A stretch of DNA of 28,506 bases from positions 1 through 28,506 of the IMG/VR virus record IMGVR_UViG_3300020042_002144. One strand, written 5' to 3'. This document shows, piece by piece, positions 1 to 10,410 of the stretch (the stretch's first letter is position 1; each line of letters begins with the position of its first letter). A model generated the notes under the pieces. It searched no databases, had not been told where the DNA came from, and saw nothing but the letters and a program-made list of their open reading frames with translations. Source of the stretch: a virus (Duplodnaviria > Caudoviricetes). A program made the position numbers and the translations under genes.

Positions 1-261
1 TCATGACTTAAGACCTAACCTTTATCTATTACTTGTCGTGCTAATTCTCTAATGCTTTTATTGTGCCTGAGTTGGCGAGCATACGCTTCGCTTCCATCAT
101 TCTCTGTTAGATACACCCAGTTGCATGACAGTACTTGCATAGCACAACTAACTAACCAGTTAGTTTGCAGGCACAACTACCAAACAGTAGGCAAGGAAAG
201 AAAAAAAGTAATTCACCGACTTGGAAGTTGGACCTAGACTTTGTGACTGCTTCTTTGCAAA

Positions 262-593
262 CAACCGCTGGCGTAGCCAAGGGCGTTAGCCGCTTTAGCG
301 GAACAGGATTACTAGCAGTCTTGTCTTAGCCTCCCCCACGGTTTAGGTATCACATTGATACCAAGGTCGCCGTAGCCAAATTCTTTTAGCCGACACCTGA
401 AAGGTTGAACATATGTCGTTGTTCACGCTGCTTGAATCTCTTACACAATAGGGGAACAACCATCTGTTTCAGATGTTCTTGATTGCAGGATTCATCTACC
501 CCAGTTACCTGGTGTGAAACGCCCCGTACCATGCAAACGGTATACAGCCATGCCTGCCTTGACGCTATCCCAGCGTGGAGGTCTTGTGAAGTT
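262..593 (-). ncRNA. Candidate structured non-coding RNA (~270-330 nt), family unknown
   Basis: No credible CDS here. A minus-strand promoter lies at 627-600. There are at least 8 stems: 562-576, 524-547, 501-512 (GUAA tetraloop), nested domain 433-494, pseudoknot 391-425, 374-391, 336-375 and 290-301. Several stems need G-U pairs that form only on the minus strand. The 3' end is uncertain. Confidence 0.5.
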
Positions 594-599
594 GACATC

Positions 600-627
600 A
601 GCATAGCATGTGTTGTGTTACTATCAA
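600..627 (-). promoter_or_regulatory. sigma70/SigA-type promoter on the minus strand
   Basis: The reverse complement reads TTGATA-16 nt-TATGCT, with TGn before the -10 (TGC-TATGCT). Predicted TSS ~593. Confidence 0.55.
616..624 (+). promoter_or_regulatory. Extended -10 promoter for the packaging/structural operon, overlapping the divergent minus-strand promoter
   Basis: TGT-TACTAT at 616-624, then AAGGA SD (648-652) and ATG 659. Confidence 0.45.
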
Positions 628-658
628 CCAATACTTCATAGTTATTTAAGGAATACCG

Positions 659-1012
659 ATGGCAGCAAAAAAATTACCCGCTAAGAAAATGGTGGCACCG
701 TCTAAGCCTAAAGAAAAGCCACATGGTTTTAACCAGACTTTGCCATCGGTTGTGGAAAAAAAGAAGGCAGCCGAACGAGCAGGCGTTCTTGCATCCGATA
801 AAAAAATTCTTGCTGAAGCAGCAAAACTCAATCAAAGGTATCGTGCGCAAGACAAGAAAGATAATCTGGGTTTTGGCTTGATTAATGTTACCTATCGTGA
901 TAAAAGTGGCAAGTTAAAAAACTCCGTAGAAAACCGTGCGCCAGGAACCACTTTTCCTAAAGACGATGTGGTTTACCTGTACAACAAAGACAAACCAAAG
1001 AAGAAGAAGTAA
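659..1012 (+). CDS. Lys-rich hypothetical protein (117 aa)
   Basis: AAGGA SD. Starts MAAKK and ends KPKKKK. TAATG overlap with the next ORF. Confidence 0.75.
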   Translation: MAAKKLPAKKMVAPSKPKEKPHGFNQTLPSVVEKKKAAERAGVLASDKKILAEAAKLNQRYRAQDKKDNLGFGLINVTYRDKSGKLKNSVENRAPGTTFPKDDVVYLYNKDKPKKKK

Positions 1013-1176
1013 TGAAACAGAAGCCTGTTTGGGAAAAAGAAAACCCAAAGAAAAAGTCTTCTCCTCTTACCTCCTCTCAAAAGACAGCAGCAAAAGCACG
1101 GGCTAAGAAGGCGGGTCGTCCGTACCCGAATCTTGTTGATAACATGGCTGCATCCCGAAACAAAAAAGGAAAGTAA
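1012..1176 (+). CDS. Small basic phage protein (54 aa, MKQKPVWEKENPKKK...AGRPYPNLVDNM...), not in the ORF track
   Basis: Translated by hand. TAATG coupling at 1010-1014, stop TAA 1174-1176. Fills the gap exactly. Confidence 0.75.
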   Translation: MKQKPVWEKENPKKKSSPLTSSQKTAAKARAKKAGRPYPNLVDNMAASRNKKGK

Positions 1177-1177
1177 C

Positions 1178-1294
1178 ATGCCACAGGTAGGAAAAAAGAA
1201 GTTCCCATACACAGACGCTGGAATGAAAGACGCTAAAATGGTGGCTAAGAAGTCTGGCAAAAAAATGAAGATGGCTCCTAAGAAGAAAAAGTAA
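1178..1294 (+). CDS. Small basic phage protein (38 aa, MPQVGKKKFPYTDAGMKDAKMVAKKSGKKMKMAPKKKK), not in the ORF track
   Basis: AAGGA SD upstream. ATG is 1 nt after the previous stop. TAATG coupling to 1294. Confidence 0.7.
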   Translation: MPQVGKKKFPYTDAGMKDAKMVAKKSGKKMKMAPKKKK

Positions 1295-1560
1295 TGGCAG
1301 CAAAGAAGGACCCCCGACTTGAACGGGCTGGGGTGTCTGGGTTTAATAAACCAAAGGCAACTCCTAAGCATCCAACTAAATCTCATGTTGTTGTAGCCAA
1401 AGTTGGTAGCGAAGTGAAACTAATCCGTTTCGGACAACAAGGTGTGTCAGGTTCCCCTGACGGGTCTGCACGCAACAAAGCGTTCAAAGACCGTCATGCT
1501 TCTAACATTGCTAAAGGAAAAATGTCTGCTGCGTATTGGGCTGACAAAGTTAAGTGGTAG
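1294..1560 (+). CDS. Basic phage protein (88 aa) with KLIRFGQQG...FKDRH...SAAYWA motifs
   Basis: The motif pattern resembles small basic proteins I recall from aquatic phages. Family not verified. Confidence 0.8.
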   Translation: MAAKKDPRLERAGVSGFNKPKATPKHPTKSHVVVAKVGSEVKLIRFGQQGVSGSPDGSARNKAFKDRHASNIAKGKMSAAYWADKVKW

Positions 1561-1571: not shown

Positions 1572-3548
1572 ATGGGAACTAAACGCACAGTTTCCCCCGC
1601 TGACCAAGCAAAATTTTTTGCAGCAATTACAGCAGGGCAAACAATCACACAAGCGTCCCGTACTGCTGGCATCCATGTCAACACAGGTTCCAAATGGTTA
1701 GCAAAAGCCAGAGCCGCAGAAGCAGTCCGTAAAGAAGCAACCGCTAAAGCATCTAAGGTTCAACGCAACGAAGGTGGTAGCCAGCGTGATGATTACAACG
1801 CTTTTATGGATGCTATTGATTTACCTTCTGCTGTCCCTGATGACAAACTGTGTGATGAAGCCCGCCGTGGTAAAGAAGACTTTGCTTTCTTTCGTGAGTA
1901 TTACCTAGGACGGGTACCTTCCCCGTGGCAGGTTGAAGCAGCACTTACTCTTGTAAAACTGTTGGAGTCTGAAGAAAAAGAATTTGTTGTTATGAATGTC
2001 CCGCCAGGTGCAGGAAAATCAACCCTGTTTCACGATGTGGCTGTGTGGGCAATTATTCGTAACCGCAGGGTGCGTGTCATGATTGGTTCTGTATCTCAGA
2101 ACATGGCAAAGATGTATTCACGCCGTATCCGTGAAACCTTAGAACGAGTACAACCAATTGAACCAGACCCAGGTATGGTACAAAAAGGATTAGCAGTAAA
2201 TGCTGGAGGGTGTTTAACAATTGACTATGGAAGATTCAAACCAACCGATAAAGGTGCCCTATGGCGGGCAGAAGAATTTGTCGTGGAGCAACTTGACGGA
2301 AACGGTTTGGACAACAAAGAGCCAACTGTCCGTGCCTACGGAATTGAAGCAGAGTTCATTGGGCACCGAGCCGACCTATGTCTCTTTGACGATGTTGCCT
2401 CACCTGACAATGCACGAGAAAGCGTGGCTAGGGACAAACTTCTGGAAAGATGGGACGGAGTGGCAGAAGCCCGTTGCGACCCAGGCGGGTTGTTGGCTGT
2501 TGTCGGGCAGAGACTCGGTTCGGGGGACCTTTACGCTCATTGTCTCGCCAAAGAAACCTACGACATTGAAGAAGATATCAATTACGATGGGTCAGATGTC
2601 CATACCCCTGAAGATGTATCTGAAGGTGTACCAGTACGGCAAAAAAAGTACCGCCATATCATCTATAAAGCGTATTATGAGGAACTTGACACGGGTAAAG
2701 AATCTCGTTCTTTCAAATCTTTACCGTATCCAGACGGACCGCTACTAGAACCCAAGCGTCTACCCTGGAAAGACCTATCATTTGTACGGTACAACAAACC
2801 AGATGTATTCAAAGTTGTATATCAACAAGAAGACCTGGATTTAGACTCTAAACTGGTACAACGCACCTGGATAACAGGTGGCATAGGACTAGATGGGGTG
2901 GACTACCCAGGATGTGTAGATGCAGACCGTCAACCAGGGTATATCCCTGAAGGTTTAGCGCACCCGTGGGTATCTATCGTCGCTGTAGACCCCTCACCTA
3001 CCATGTTCTGGGCATTTGTGTGGATTATCTACCAGCCAAATACAAACCTTTACCATGTTGTAGATATTGAACGAGTGAAACTATCCGCTGAAGAAGTCCT
3101 CGGTTATGACACCATGACAGGTGAATACTCAGGGTTGATGGACAGGATGCAGGAACGCTCATACCAAATGGGCTACCCAATCTCGCATTGGATTGTTGAA
3201 ATCAACGCAGCCCAACGGTTCCTTCTAGCCCACGACTTTGTACGCAAATGGCAAGCCCTTCACCGTGTCAATGTTGTGCCTCACACCACTAGCCGAAACA
3301 AACTAGACGAATCACTGGGTGTGGAATCATTATTGCCGCCAGTTATCAGGTCGGGAGCCTTACGCCTGCCTTCTATGAAGGGTAACTGGAAGACTCTTGC
3401 CGCTTCAGACGAGTTAACTAAATGGTCTAGAGATAAGAAACATGGCACAGACATTGTTATGGCTTTATGGATGGCTCTACTTAACCTGCCGAACCTAACC
3501 GAATCCAAACCACCACCCCGCCAATGGCGACCATCCTGGCTTAAGTAA
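1572..3548 (+). CDS. terL: Terminase large subunit with N-terminal HTH extension
   Basis: PWQ motif, Walker A PPGAGKST, Walker B LCLFDD, coupling motif VVGQR, RNase H-like nuclease IVAVDPS...DIVMAL. Lies before the portal. Confidence 0.93.
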   Translation: MGTKRTVSPADQAKFFAAITAGQTITQASRTAGIHVNTGSKWLAKARAAEAVRKEATAKASKVQRNEGGSQRDDYNAFMDAIDLPSAVPDDKLCDEARRGKEDFAFFREYYLGRVPSPWQVEAALTLVKLLESEEKEFVVMNVPPGAGKSTLFHDVAVWAIIRNRRVRVMIGSVSQNMAKMYSRRIRETLERVQPIEPDPGMVQKGLAVNAGGCLTIDYGRFKPTDKGALWRAEEFVVEQLDGNGLDNKEPTVRAYGIEAEFIGHRADLCLFDDVASPDNARESVARDKLLERWDGVAEARCDPGGLLAVVGQRLGSGDLYAHCLAKETYDIEEDINYDGSDVHTPEDVSEGVPVRQKKYRHIIYKAYYEELDTGKESRSFKSLPYPDGPLLEPKRLPWKDLSFVRYNKPDVFKVVYQQEDLDLDSKLVQRTWITGGIGLDGVDYPGCVDADRQPGYIPEGLAHPWVSIVAVDPSPTMFWAFVWIIYQPNTNLYHVVDIERVKLSAEEVLGYDTMTGEYSGLMDRMQERSYQMGYPISHWIVEINAAQRFLLAHDFVRKWQALHRVNVVPHTTSRNKLDESLGVESLLPPVIRSGALRLPSMKGNWKTLAASDELTKWSRDKKHGTDIVMALWMALLNLPNLTESKPPPRQWRPSWLK

Positions 3549-5426: not shown

Positions 5427-5797
5427 TGGCTGAATACCCAAACCGTTCCGACCTGCGTAACCCCGCAGGAAAAATTGCTGCAAAGGCTGCAACAGGTCAA
5501 ACATACGGTGAAGCAGGAAAACAAATGGCTGCACAACAGTCAGTACCTATGGGGGCATCACCAAGTGCTGCGCCTCAGCCAACGCAACCAGTGAATCGTC
5601 CTGTTGCTGGAAGTGTTGTTGACATGATGGCACCAACTCAACGCCCTGAAGACATGATGGCTCCTATCATGAACAACAGACCGTCAATTCTTCCTATGTC
5701 TAACCCTGTTCTTGAAGAACTGGAAACCTTGTACCGCATGTATCCGAACGATGACCTTGCTAGTTTGTTATCTGCAATCAAGTACAATGGAATGTAA
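5426..5797 (+). CDS. Hypothetical virion-associated protein (123 aa)
   Basis: GGAGG SD and TAATG overlaps at both ends. Contains GQTYGE and a Pro-rich middle. Confidence 0.8.
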   Translation: MAEYPNRSDLRNPAGKIAAKAATGQTYGEAGKQMAAQQSVPMGASPSAAPQPTQPVNRPVAGSVVDMMAPTQRPEDMMAPIMNNRPSILPMSNPVLEELETLYRMYPNDDLASLLSAIKYNGM

Positions 5798-8700
5798 TGC
5801 AACCTGTTGAAAACGAAGATGCTATATGGATGACAATTGCGCAGGAAGCCGAACGCCGTCGCCAGATGGCTATTACTGGGACACCAGAACAGGCGTTGCG
5901 TGCAGGGCAACTACATAGCCAGTTCCCATCTTTATCTCCAGGTGTAAAACTTGCAGCCGCAAAAGCAAACCTTACTGACGAACAAGTCAAAGAGATTGCC
6001 CGCACTGCTGCCCCTTTAGATTTAGAACCTAAAACACCAAAGAAAAAATCTTGGATTGACCGCAATGTTACGGACAAAATTAAAACTGCTTCCCGTTATG
6101 GGATGGCTGGTTTAGAGTTCATACCTCAAACGGTTGTTGGTGCTGCAGCACAAATTGCTGACGCTGATGATGGTGGAGATATTGGCGGTTGGTTTATATC
6201 AACAGACCTAGGCTCCCTTATTGCCAATGATGAGGAGGCTGGTGATGGTTTCTTTATTGGTGGTAAAGCAAAACAACTTCAATCAGACCGTGTGCGCAGA
6301 TACCGTGGAACAATCAACGGTGAAGCATTTACCCTTGGTCGTGGTTTAGCATCAACTTTTCTTGAACCAAACACAAACGCATACCGTTTACTATCTGGTG
6401 CTGTTGATGCAGCCACTGCAATTGCAATTCCATCTATCCCAATAGTAGGCGCAATCGGTAAAGCAGCCCGTGCGGTAGAAGAAGGCGCAGACATATCTAA
6501 AGGCTTTGGTCTTGTAGGCAAAGGTTTATCTGCAGTAAGCCAAACCGATACTGGTGCTGAGGTTCTTTCTAAAGTGGGTGCAGCCTCCCGTATCGTAGGC
6601 AAGGGCAGCAAAGAAGTCATGACTACTGCTGCGAACGCAACAGAACGAGCAGCCATGCGTGCCAATGTGGGCATCGTCGGTAACGATATTGACATTGCAC
6701 AAAGCAACAGATTCTTTAGAACAGATTTTGGTCGGCGTATCATTCAACGCACCGCAGAAACAAATGACTTTGCCGAGACACGCAAACTATGGGGTGGCAA
6801 GTTAGACCCTGCAACAACCATGAGACTTGCTGCCGCCAAAACAGAAGAAGAAGTAATGGCTGGCGTACTTGATGTTTTAGGTACACAAGTTTCCAACATT
6901 GCAGGAGTTGGTGGTGGACGCAGAACATATAGGTCGCTCGCCCAGCGCAATAAACTTATTGAACTTGCACCTTTTGGTGAAGGAGTCTCACGAGCATTTT
7001 CAAAGATGCCAATGCACAACATCAACTTGTTCCAGGCTGAAACCCCTCGTGACCAGATTACCCAACTTGACACTGTTGAAAGAGTATTAAAACTATTTAA
7101 GGCTGACCCAGAAAAACAGGCTAGTTATATTAACCGTGCAGGTGAACTTTTACTTTCTAAAGACACAGGTAAAATCGCAGACTTTTACGATGACCTCATG
7201 TTTGAAGCAAAAGATTCAATGAAGTTTTTTGGTACACACCCAGACCTTGTTGACCAACTTTACAAAGTACATGGTGATTATGTAGAAGGTGCTAAAGCCA
7301 ACAGTGTTGACATTTTTGGCAACAGAACTGACGATGGTTTGTACCGCACACTTCATGGTCTACCACCTGATGCGGATGCAAGAATATATGTTGGTGGTAC
7401 TTTAACTTCTGAATTTAGTAAGAACGAATTTTTTATTCCAGACCCTAAACAAGTTCGTCGTTTAACAAACAACTTCAACTGGTTGTGGGTTAAAAATAAA
7501 TCAGACCCTAACCTTATAAATCTTGACAAGGCTGGTGCATTGCGCATGCCTTTTGCTGCGTTGGATTTTGTTCAAGAACAAGTGTGGCGTAAATACATCA
7601 CAACAACAATAGGCAACTTTGTACGAAACACTGTTGACTCTCAAATTTCCCTTGCCTTGTCAGGCAAAACAGGAACAAGTCTTTTCTACCACCCGTTTCA
7701 TTGGATGAGTTATGTCAACCATGAAGTAGGTCAAGAAACCTTGACAGGTAAAAGTTGGAAAATACCTGGTTCCGTAGATAATGTTGATGAATCATTGTCG
7801 GATTACAAGTCGGTTCTAGGTTCTCAAGTTTCTGCATACTATAAAGACCCCCTCATTGCCCGTCAAAGAGCGGCAAGGACTGGACAGTTCACCCAGTACG
7901 AACGCCGTCTTGACCAAGTAGATAACACTGTTGCCAGAGCGCATGGTGATGAGATTGGAAAACTTAACGCTGACTGGGATACCCGAAGAATGGCAGAAGG
8001 AAAAACTGTTGACGAACTTTATGACCTAATTAAACCTGCCGACCCTAAAGCAATCCCTGACCCAGAAGGACTTAAGTGGTTCAAGGAAGTTGAACAAGAA
8101 TTTAAAAGAGGTAAGGAAATTTGGGACAACGCCACACAAACATACAGTTTTGAAAAAATTGATATGAATGTACCAGGCAACCTAAAGCGTTTGATAGAAG
8201 CAAACAGTGCCCGTCTTGAAAAAATAACAGGCAACCATCCTGAACTATTAGACATTGTTGCACAGGGTCGTCTTACCAAGCGTGCCCAAAGAGTTAAAGT
8301 TGGTGACAAGATTGTTGGCGACCTTAAAATTGGTGGTCGTGTTGAAGTCACTAAAGACATAATCGTCTTCGGTAAAAAGAAAAAAGAAACATACCTGGCA
8401 AAAATTGTTAGTGAAACAAAAACTGCTAACGGTACAGAATACTTTGTTGAACCTTTTGCTTTTGTTGAGGGAAACATCACATCCAAACTTGAGTCAGTTT
8501 TAAGAGACAAAAACATTTACATGGACAAACGCATGCCACGGTATGTTGTCGGTGAAGTTCGTGTTCCTAACACTTCAGCACAGGACCAAATTATTAAGTC
8601 AATGGATATGATGGTTGACAAGTTCCACACAACCCTCTATACGAAACCAATCTCAGAACTTGAACGCTCACCAGCCTTCAGAAGTTTCTATTACGAACGG

Positions 8701-10410
8701 ATAGAAAAACTTGCTCAATCACTTGATGAAGTATCTCTAAACAAAATCATTGATGACCTAACAACTCGTGCTGCTTCAGATGGTTCTAAACCAGAAAATT
8801 ATTTGACACCTCAAGTGTGGAACAAACTTCAAGACCTTAAAGCAAACCCAGACAAACTATACGGCACATTAAACGCCGACGAGGTATCAAGTTGGGCATC
8901 TGCCGCAGCAGTTGATGAATACAAAAAAACTTTCTACAACGCTGTTGAACGCCGAAACGGTACAGATGTTATGCGTCTTATCGCACCGTTCGCCCAGCAA
9001 CAGGCTGAGTTCTTTGGTCGTATGTCTCGGTTCTTCTCAGTCCCAGTTGCAGGTGGTTCACTTGGTTATCTGCCTAACCCAGACAACTTCCGCAAACTGC
9101 AGTTCACTGTTGAGAACGGGCGTGAAGCAGACCCAGACGGCGATGGTCGTGGAATTTTTTACAAGGACCCAAGCACGGGGCAATACACTATGTCCATCCC
9201 TCTTACGGGTTACCTAACAAAGATGGTTACAGGGGTAAACGCAGATTTTACTTTTGGTGTTAAAGGTTTGGCACCTGGTCTTGACTTCCGCCCAGGTCTT
9301 GGACCATTCATGACAATGGCTACCAGTGTAATTTTGCGAAAAGTCCCAGAGCAAGACTTTGTTCGTAAAATGCTTTTGCCTTATGGCGAAAGAACAAACT
9401 TTGGTAGCACCTTCACACCAACATGGGTAACCAAGATATATGAGGGAATCACTGGCAATGGTCGTTTCTTTGCTAACACCTACGCTGAAACAATTCAAGC
9501 GTTGGCTGCAACAGGCAAGTATGACCTATCTAATGTGGACGATAAAGCCCGCATGGAAGATGAAGCAGAAGATAAGGCACGAGCATTCGCTATCCTTCGT
9601 GGCGTAATACAGTTCACTGGTCCAGCAGCAGGAGATTTTGATTTCAGTGTTGTAACAAAAGAAGGAGACACCCACACAGTTGGGTTGGCGACAGCACTCC
9701 AGGCACTACGGGAAAACAACCCCGACACAGCCGCTTTGCGCTTCATTGAAATCTTTGGTGAAAATGCGTTTATTTATTTGTCAAACAAAACAACCACCGA
9801 GATGGGTGGTCTTGGAGCGTCAAAAGAATTTGGTAATTTTGAAAGAAGCAACCCAGATTTAATTCGTAAATACAAAGAGATTGCTGGGTTCTTCGGTCCT
9901 TCAGGAACAGACTTTGACTTTGAAGTTTACACCCGACAGTTAGAAACGGGTTTCCGTAAGAGACTTACTCCAGATGAAATGATTGATGCCTCTCAGAAAG
10001 CAATCGGCATGGCTTTCTACAATGACATGAAATCAGAGTTCGGTCCCAAGATGAACAAAGACCAACGGGCATATCTTGCTAACTACAAACTGGCAATCAT
10101 CGCCAAGTACCCTGGGTTTGGCAAGATGAACCTTGACCCAGGTAAAACTTCTCGTAACATCAACCAGTTGTTTGAGGCTGCAAAAACCGAGGGATTGCAA
10201 AACAACGATGTCGCAACTGCTGTTAAGTATTATGAGGAGATTCGTGGTCAAGCACTGGCAGAAGCAATCAGGCGTGGCTTCCCTTCTCTGGCATCTTCTG
10301 AACTTGGCGACCTTCACGAGTACCTTTACGATTATGCCAGCACGCTCACCGAGCAGACCCCTGACTTCGGTAAGGTATATGACAGACTACTTTCACAGGA
10401 ATTGGAATAA
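5797..10410 (+). CDS. Large probable internal virion/DNA ejection protein (1537 aa)
   Basis: Very long, mostly helical ORF in the structural block, with no tail-tube or tape-measure context. Function inferred from size and position. Confidence 0.6.
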   Translation: MQPVENEDAIWMTIAQEAERRRQMAITGTPEQALRAGQLHSQFPSLSPGVKLAAAKANLTDEQVKEIARTAAPLDLEPKTPKKKSWIDRNVTDKIKTASRYGMAGLEFIPQTVVGAAAQIADADDGGDIGGWFISTDLGSLIANDEEAGDGFFIGGKAKQLQSDRVRRYRGTINGEAFTLGRGLASTFLEPNTNAYRLLSGAVDAATAIAIPSIPIVGAIGKAARAVEEGADISKGFGLVGKGLSAVSQTDTGAEVLSKVGAASRIVGKGSKEVMTTAANATERAAMRANVGIVGNDIDIAQSNRFFRTDFGRRIIQRTAETNDFAETRKLWGGKLDPATTMRLAAAKTEEEVMAGVLDVLGTQVSNIAGVGGGRRTYRSLAQRNKLIELAPFGEGVSRAFSKMPMHNINLFQAETPRDQITQLDTVERVLKLFKADPEKQASYINRAGELLLSKDTGKIADFYDDLMFEAKDSMKFFGTHPDLVDQLYKVHGDYVEGAKANSVDIFGNRTDDGLYRTLHGLPPDADARIYVGGTLTSEFSKNEFFIPDPKQVRRLTNNFNWLWVKNKSDPNLINLDKAGALRMPFAALDFVQEQVWRKYITTTIGNFVRNTVDSQISLALSGKTGTSLFYHPFHWMSYVNHEVGQETLTGKSWKIPGSVDNVDESLSDYKSVLGSQVSAYYKDPLIARQRAARTGQFTQYERRLDQVDNTVARAHGDEIGKLNADWDTRRMAEGKTVDELYDLIKPADPKAIPDPEGLKWFKEVEQEFKRGKEIWDNATQTYSFEKIDMNVPGNLKRLIEANSARLEKITGNHPELLDIVAQGRLTKRAQRVKVGDKIVGDLKIGGRVEVTKDIIVFGKKKKETYLAKIVSETKTANGTEYFVEPFAFVEGNITSKLESVLRDKNIYMDKRMPRYVVGEVRVPNTSAQDQIIKSMDMMVDKFHTTLYTKPISELERSPAFRSFYYERIEKLAQSLDEVSLNKIIDDLTTRAASDGSKPENYLTPQVWNKLQDLKANPDKLYGTLNADEVSSWASAAAVDEYKKTFYNAVERRNGTDVMRLIAPFAQQQAEFFGRMSRFFSVPVAGGSLGYLPNPDNFRKLQFTVENGREADPDGDGRGIFYKDPSTGQYTMSIPLTGYLTKMVTGVNADFTFGVKGLAPGLDFRPGLGPFMTMATSVILRKVPEQDFVRKMLLPYGERTNFGSTFTPTWVTKIYEGITGNGRFFANTYAETIQALAATGKYDLSNVDDKARMEDEAEDKARAFAILRGVIQFTGPAAGDFDFSVVTKEGDTHTVGLATALQALRENNPDTAALRFIEIFGENAFIYLSNKTTTEMGGLGASKEFGNFERSNPDLIRKYKEIAGFFGPSGTDFDFEVYTRQLETGFRKRLTPDEMIDASQKAIGMAFYNDMKSEFGPKMNKDQRAYLANYKLAIIAKYPGFGKMNLDPGKTSRNINQLFEAAKTEGLQNNDVATAVKYYEEIRGQALAEAIRRGFPSLASSELGDLHEYLYDYASTLTEQTPDFGKVYDRLLSQELE

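Follow-up and report, generated by a model that had tools for sequence, protein, structure and literature searches.

Among the elaborate RNAs of phages, the pRNA of phi29 is a structured RNA that lies near the genome end and points outward, and GOLLD and ROOL are ornate RNAs of unknown role. Plasmid ColE1 has no initiator and primes its replication with RNA II (PMC5043065), and the anatomy of an RNA-primed origin is laid out for this plasmid in the relevant parts of PMC5043065 and PMC5935869; what keeps the transcript on its template is, in the sections of PMC5043065 that address it, still speculative even for ColE1. The MRB plasmids of Vibrionaceae carry an RNA-only replicon of 250-500 nt, and as of PMC3035462, in the portion that treats this question, ColE1 and MRB plasmids were the only replicons for which initiation by an RNA had been described. 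The ARRPOF, GEBRO and PAGEV motifs, which measure 223-349 nt, are presented as replication-linked in the corresponding part of PMC5737381.

The element described here lies in a 28.5-kb record of a tailed phage, 73% complete; the whole stretch of 28,506 nucleotides that was analysed is called the window below. The original prediction had proposed a functional, pseudoknotted phage RNA on the minus strand, outside any Rfam family, and covariation among relatives together with conservation of the promoter bore this out: we are highly confident that the element is a functional structured RNA and represents a new ornate phage family. ARAGORN found no tRNA or tmRNA in the window, as had been predicted, and no Rfam family matched the element at the gathering score, or at E 10 in positions 1-1000; Rfam searches of 39 further members and blastn against annotated phages and plasmids gave chance-level matches only. 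No description of the motif was found in the literature searched, and a fragment may be among the 8,495 short IMG/VR motifs, at most 151 nt long, of PMC10690425 (Fremin 2023).

The locus and its carriers

The features of the locus, by window position, are as follows.

1..185, strand not applicable: non-native flank, inverted join (L001 reverse match and RNA-library contig)
199..300, minus strand: optional 3' extension with small hairpins and a U-rich tract (hairpin motif 42/129, T-tract 26/129); possible end near 200
329..593, minus strand: core of the predicted structured RNA, spanning some 265 nt here; model R1 gives the window 199 bits
600..627, minus strand: predicted promoter TTGATA-16-TATGCT, with TG; the -35 box is 627-622, the extended -10 box 605-600, and transcription is predicted to begin near 593
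659..1560, plus strand: four small Lys-rich ORFs, a variable cargo whose set differs freely between relatives and is untied to the RNA
1572..3548, plus strand: terminase large subunit (terL) with an N-terminal TerS-like region (phrog_38, E 1e-60; phrog_4102 over residues 12-121, E 9e-6), divergent from the RNA

The element thus sits upstream of the four small ORFs and terL, on the opposite strand, and profile matches place terminase, portal, capsid, tail, RecE and an annealing protein on the plus strand. The HTH/TerS-like region of TerL corresponds to window 1572-1935, and no separate small terminase gene is evident in the phages of group 1 (defined below). After the portal cluster, a 1537-aa ORF (5797-10410) is almost without family match (weak phrog_29117).

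When we compared the left end of the window with the near-identical complete record L001/G258, positions 113-195 matched L001 2444-2362 in reverse, the join lying at a short inverted repeat, while the first 112 bases had no match in the L001 stretch compared. Since an RNA-library contig also runs from 186 into L001-type flank, window 1-185 is an inverted join, likely an assembly chimera near the putative genome end. The AT-rich repeat region that had been read after the RNA is therefore not native below 186; the native, L001-type flank has C/A-rich repeats instead.

Two promoter-like sites were found in positions 1-1700, against 1.8 expected, so the predicted minus-strand promoter, although present as described, is at chance level in the window alone. 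Its -10 box is nevertheless conserved: a TANNNT box followed by a CAAC-type +1 region occurs in 95/136 non-redundant members, against 28.7 in shuffles. In the window (592-661) and in relatives, the promoters of the late operon and of the RNA seem to overlap in back-to-back orientation. A reverse ATG stands 26-28 nt from the -10 box in 32/95 members, which suggests a leaderless late mRNA. Contigs from RNA libraries of lake and wetland samples cover 186-638, two of them crossing the predicted promoter, to 612 and 638, and capsid and other genes are covered as well; these libraries (6 runs of 14, contigs only) were selected because the element occurs in them, and DNA may be present in them too. 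The runs richest in it are labelled lake water and wetland.

Of 80 terL relatives, 37 extend 2.3 kb or more upstream, and every one of these carries the element, as do 56 of the 58 with enough flank in a second, more distant set, at 80 to 1872 nt from terL. In two terL relatives, L325 and L333, about 3 kb of upstream sequence was free of the element at E 1e-4; they may have lost it, or it may be situated beyond that stretch. Scans with a DNA pattern returned 63 and then at least 120 viral loci (about 480 IMG/VR stretches estimated) and at least 120 metagenome loci (about 470 stretches estimated), and 119 of the 120 metagenome matches listed are recovered by the full profile too. There is overlap between the sets, and in members found with the pattern the pattern bases are invariant through selection by the scan itself; members anchored on terL show the same core. 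The element is single-copy in each of nine complete genomes.

Three unrelated phage groups carry it. In group 1, a terL of the window type lies divergently upstream in 177/229 loci (42 are too short and 10 are without it). Group 2 (G001-G003 and G005) encodes SSB and WhiB and, several genes away from the RNA, an unrelated terminase of 530 aa; its TerS-like gene is separate, and most genes there run opposite to the RNA. Group 3 comprises the myovirus G004, with tail sheath and WhiB and with the RNA inside its replication module, and similar contigs. Because WhiB occurs in some carrier phages, their hosts are likely actinobacterial. The exact DNA pattern has no match in 185,579 species genomes, and the terL profile found three contigs there, all short pieces inside MAGs, so that no host was assigned from them.

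Fold and covariation of the predicted RNA

The conserved core of about 175 nt stands alone in minimal members, and the family ranges from 175 to 270 nt. From 5' to 3' on the minus strand, the order is P1, CA-N-G, P2 to P7, AA, base 341, then GU and the G-run, as follows in the window.

557..581, minus strand: P1, an optional 5' hairpin with a conserved G-N-Y-GGGA loop (loop in 92/159); covariation at 576-562, 575-563 and 573-565
521..552, minus strand: invariant CA-N-G, then P2 (548-521), with a 3-bp stem, a GUA/CGG internal loop, a 4-bp stem and the loop bearing PK1
498..515, minus strand: P3 hairpin with a GNRA tetraloop (508-505) and a conserved A.G opposition; GNRA in 48/48, 26-27 compensatory cells at each of two pairs
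433..494, minus strand: P4, a variable domain; the outer stem covaries, the inner tiers are optional (long form 49/159)
428..431, minus strand: PK1 partner, pairing with P2 loop 536-533; 100% paired in 48 rows, 7 compensatory cells
407..424, minus strand: P5 hairpin with an AACG loop, missing from type-B members
364..398, minus strand: P6, the invariant core helix, with bulged base 368, which pairs with 341
346..362, minus strand: P7, a variable hairpin; DnaA boxes in a few relatives, some inside the P7 loop
329..343, minus strand: AA, base 341, GU, a run of 5-8 G and the PK2 strand 331-329, whose partner is 374-376

Folded on its own, the minus strand of 300-595 gives an MFE of -82.2 kcal/mol against -82.8 for shuffles (z 0.11; plus strand z -0.67), so for the single sequence the nearly complete pairing that was claimed does not exceed chance. 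Its support comes from compensatory changes in relatives, which make a strong comparative case. In an alignment built from the 75 most diverse members, of which 48 remained after type-B and some ragged rows were left out, 95.9% of 1698 cells pair and compensatory changes occur at 21/36 pairs, in 337 cells against 102 in shuffles. Slid controls drop pairing to 27-46%, a comparison that flatters the structure, as it was drawn from the same 48 sequences. Among 119 non-redundant sequences, the pairs with the highest mutual information are almost all canonical helix pairs. The excess of G-U over A-C cells on the minus strand (195 vs 12 in the 48 rows), together with GNRA loops in all 48, fixes the strand as minus, in agreement with the strand preference originally read from G-U pairs.

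All motifs quoted in the original prediction are present at their minus-strand places, and several of the helices come through this comparison intact. Compensatory changes back the 5' ACGCU/AGCGU hairpin, the CCAG-GNRA-CUGG hairpin, the UGAACA/UGUUCA hairpin, the GGUAUCA/UGAUACC stem and most, not all, of the 548-521 arm; in the four-tier domain at 433-494 they back the outer UGAAUC/GAUUCA stem, and the inner tiers are optional. Three proposals have to be given up. The CGACA/UGUCG pseudoknot has its middle pair unpaired in 30/44 rows, the closure of the ends by CCUCC/GGAGG involves words found in 23/159 and 25/159 non-redundant members respectively, and of the 6-bp helix CUACGG/CCGUGG the single pair 368-341 alone covaries.

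In place of the CGACA/UGUCG pairing, the alignment supports two other predicted pseudoknots, PK1 and PK2, which with 368-341 make three tertiary contacts. The 368-341 pair is canonical (G-C, C-G or U-A) in 135/137 non-redundant members. Most of the 22 type-B members replace PK1 with other loop-loop complements of 5-9 nt, in at least five different sequences. PK2 (376-374/331-329) reads GCU/AGC in 69, GCC/GGC in 14 and GUC/GAC in 11 of 137 members; it is only 71% paired in the fixed alignment and competes with a short GCU/AGC stem of P6. A candidate pairing between the 5' CA-N-G and Y-GUG is 98.6% paired with zero covariation.

A putative origin primer and its rivals

Our favoured reading, held at about even odds, is that the predicted RNA serves as the pre-primer of a phage replication origin. 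This reading draws on three lines: DnaA boxes at the 3' end, a place before initiator and loader genes, and the lack of recognised replication proteins in the scanned parts of the genomes of about 40 kb. With the conserved 3' G-run, they make up the anatomy of an RNA-primed origin as in ColE1. Counting exact matches to the DnaA box consensus, we found 18 boxes at -60 to +200 of the core end, in 11/129 non-redundant loci, against 0.53 in shuffles (maximum 4). Of the 17 boxes in a 2.4-kb span, 16 fall within 200 nt of the core end, and the 11 loci are spread over several dissimilar groups. No box occurs at the element in the window.

In the myovirus G004 the RNA lies directly 5' of, and on the same strand as, an initiator gene (phrog_16167, E 6e-14) and a helicase-loader-like gene (phrog_2289, E 1e-3). 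The divergent contig L394 has the same arrangement (E 1e-5 and E 8e-5, respectively), and the two initiators, of 123-137 aa only, are 43% identical. Initiator-family proteins in L351 (15297-16185) and L394 (409-1311) match positions 171-268 only of the 315 in the profile and are followed by a loader-like gene. The L399 locus, where the RNA comes after WhiB and an ORF without assignment, adds little.

No initiator of the phrog_16167 family was found in the four complete group-1 genomes of about 40 kb, and no primase, polymerase or DnaB was recognised among the scanned ORFs of the window and parts of G258, G259, G262 and G264. Only RecE/RecT, RusA or endo VII, SSB and an SNF2 helicase were recognised in the scanned ORFs of such genomes. 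A divergent initiator may be missed, since most ORFs match no family, the genomes were scanned in part, and one PHROG 'primase' label fell on a DNA methyltransferase.

If the element is a pre-primer, host RNA polymerase would transcribe it from the conserved promoter, and the folded core (P2-P7, PK1, PK2 and 368-341) would position the 3' G-run while the nascent RNA stays hybridised to the template. The hybrid would be trimmed just past the G-run, by host RNase H or through pausing, and then extended by host polymerase. The displaced strand would receive the host helicase, with DnaA boxes helping in some members and, in the larger phages, with a phage initiator fragment and loader helping to bring the helicase on. 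More ambitiously, and with a little less confidence, this could be a third, independently evolved RNA-primed origin, and the first on an ornate pseudoknotted RNA in tailed phages, which would replace initiator and primase in actinobacterial phages of about 40 kb, recruit a truncated initiator and a loader in larger ones, and have spread as a module across podo/sipho- and myovirus lineages that are unrelated to each other.

Several observations weigh against the primer. DnaA boxes are confined to the 11 loci above, four tests detected no homology to ColE1 RNA II, and an antisense control RNA was not found. A fork leaving the 3' end would meet transcription head-on in group 2, where most genes run opposite to the RNA, and beyond the core the strand of the RNA is rich in C (C 0.30, G 0.20-0.22), a composition unfavourable for a long R-loop. 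The original guess of a primer or R-loop RNA gains independent support from the boxes, the initiator and loader adjacency and the small genomes, and none from RNA II sequence.

The RNA also points at a conserved terminus-like motif, located 86-426 nt 3' of the core in 83/129 loci against 2 in the upstream control, which likely marks a genome end. This would also fit a packaging or genome-end RNA, in which transcription toward a pac/terminus would license terminase cutting or T7-like terminal-repeat duplication, or the RNA would join the motor as phi29 pRNA does. Such a role would agree with the constancy of the element in terL-anchored loci with enough flank (37/37 and 56/58), with a divergent terL of the window type just upstream in 120/133 of the viral loci listed, which were found by DNA pattern alone, and with the ends of viral contigs, which lie no more than 500 nt off on the 3' side in 20/133 of these loci against 2 on the 5' side. 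This asymmetry is gone in the general metagenome set (17 vs 21), the same RNA stands several genes away from an unrelated 530-aa terminase with its separate TerS and inside a myovirus replication module, and the terminus-like motif is absent from the eight such loci checked. With no Rfam match either, pRNA included, the earlier guess of a packaging RNA is weakened, and we regard this role as unlikely. In the native flank of group-1 phages, 200-330 nt 3' of the RNA (L001 2440-2620), a conserved block combines C/A-rich repeats and a AAAAGAGTGA word with a TA run and with a G/C-run motif; it is a candidate for the pac/terminus and the TerL-HTH binding sites.

Rather unlikely, in our view, is a trans-acting RNA of host takeover that binds a conserved actinobacterial machine such as RNA polymerase, a nuclease or a ribosome factor, which would set it beside GOLLD and ROOL. 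In keeping with it are the many unpaired bases that never vary, the modular tertiary fold that unrelated phages have in common and the pieces of the element in lake and wetland RNA libraries; its fixed place, where an operon or replication module begins, and the nearby DnaA boxes suggest action in cis instead, no terminator is conserved, and the RNA model found no counterpart in 150 sampled actinobacterial genomes, bar one 18-bit match read as coding.

Covariation cannot separate single-stranded DNA from RNA, as the part of PMC5737381 dealing with such motifs points out, and a single-strand origin or a primosome site, in which the structure would act as single-stranded DNA, would fit the covariation and the origin context, and also the RNA-library contigs that run across the predicted promoter. 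We consider it improbable given GNRA loops in 48/48, the bias toward G-U over A-C cells and the conserved -10 box at the 5' edge. A partnership of the RNA with the adjacent basic peptides, as in the original suggestion, in which the RNA might be an antitoxin or a chaperone substrate, has their adjacency in the window in its favour and can practically be dismissed, as many members lack these ORFs and terL may start as little as 80-120 nt from the element.

If the primer reading is true, this compact phage RNA of 175-270 nt, which offers an invariant core, two predicted pseudoknots and natural variants by the hundred, would be a tractable model for transcript retention on the template; the replication of small phages without recognisable replication proteins would have an explanation, and actinobacteria would gain a new replicon. 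Whatever its function, the element is a new ornate RNA family suited to cryo-EM.

Comparison with described systems

Several likenesses were set aside. A loop-loop kiss, a GNRA arm and a single covarying bulged pair recall alpha-alpha', theta and EBS3/delta of group II introns, but a domain 1 identity was rejected, as neither the profile HMM, run against 29 intron loci, nor the RNA model, run against 15, gave a match; models of D1-D4 and D5/D6 had no match either, and no D5, D6 or reverse transcriptase was found. Likenesses to RNase P, group I introns and 23S rRNA were dropped by inspection and Rfam. The raiA RNA (RF03072), described in the pertinent part of PMC12968392 as a pseudoknotted Actinobacteria RNA of about 200 nt, resembles the element in its 3' GUGGGG and in some look-alike words in the same order; raiA has a long P1 joining both ends, which is absent here, and its identity with the element was rejected on that ground and for lack of a match in either direction on real loci.

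Like phi29 pRNA, the element is structured, near a (putative) genome end and pointing outward. Unlike in phi29, the phage has a nuclease-type large terminase and the RNA persists with unrelated motors; no pRNA match at the element and no phi29-type ATPase were found. ARRPOF (RF02933), tied to replication without Rep in the section of PMC5737381 that covers it, is of similar size and ornate as well, with no match in five records at E 10. As proposed here, the element would share an RNA-only replicon with MRB RNA II and PAGEV (RF03037); PAGEV had no match at the element in five records at E 10, and no antisense RNA was seen.

The closest comparison is with ColE1. Against model R1, ColE1 RNA II gave a best E of 0.16, and apart from a 2.2-bit fragment the matches lay outside the origin region; nhmmer found nothing, the block chain reached 21.9 against 24.6 +/- 4.0 in shuffles, and a reverse profile of six ColE1-type origins matched 0/275 members at 5 bits. 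No RNAI family match and no plus-strand promoter-like site in 1-1700 were found for an antisense RNA of the RNA I type. The element differs from RNA II in being about half as long, in its pairing partners, in the failure to find RNA I and Rop, and in belonging to tailed phages rather than enterobacterial plasmids, with no detectable homology. By eye, both it and ColE1/pMB1 RNA II are non-coding and combine a GAAA-type hairpin with a stem and with a G-run near the 3' end, and the 3' part of ColE1 RNA II follows a similar order of GNRA-type hairpin, UGUCGG, GCNACC, stem and G-run. ColE1 (NC_001371) also has a DnaA-type box downstream and is a replicon without its own initiator; no initiator or primase was recognised in the scanned parts of the phage genomes of about 40 kb, and an initiator gene lies next to the RNA in two other phages. 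The element, which we do not file as RNA II, may work like it.
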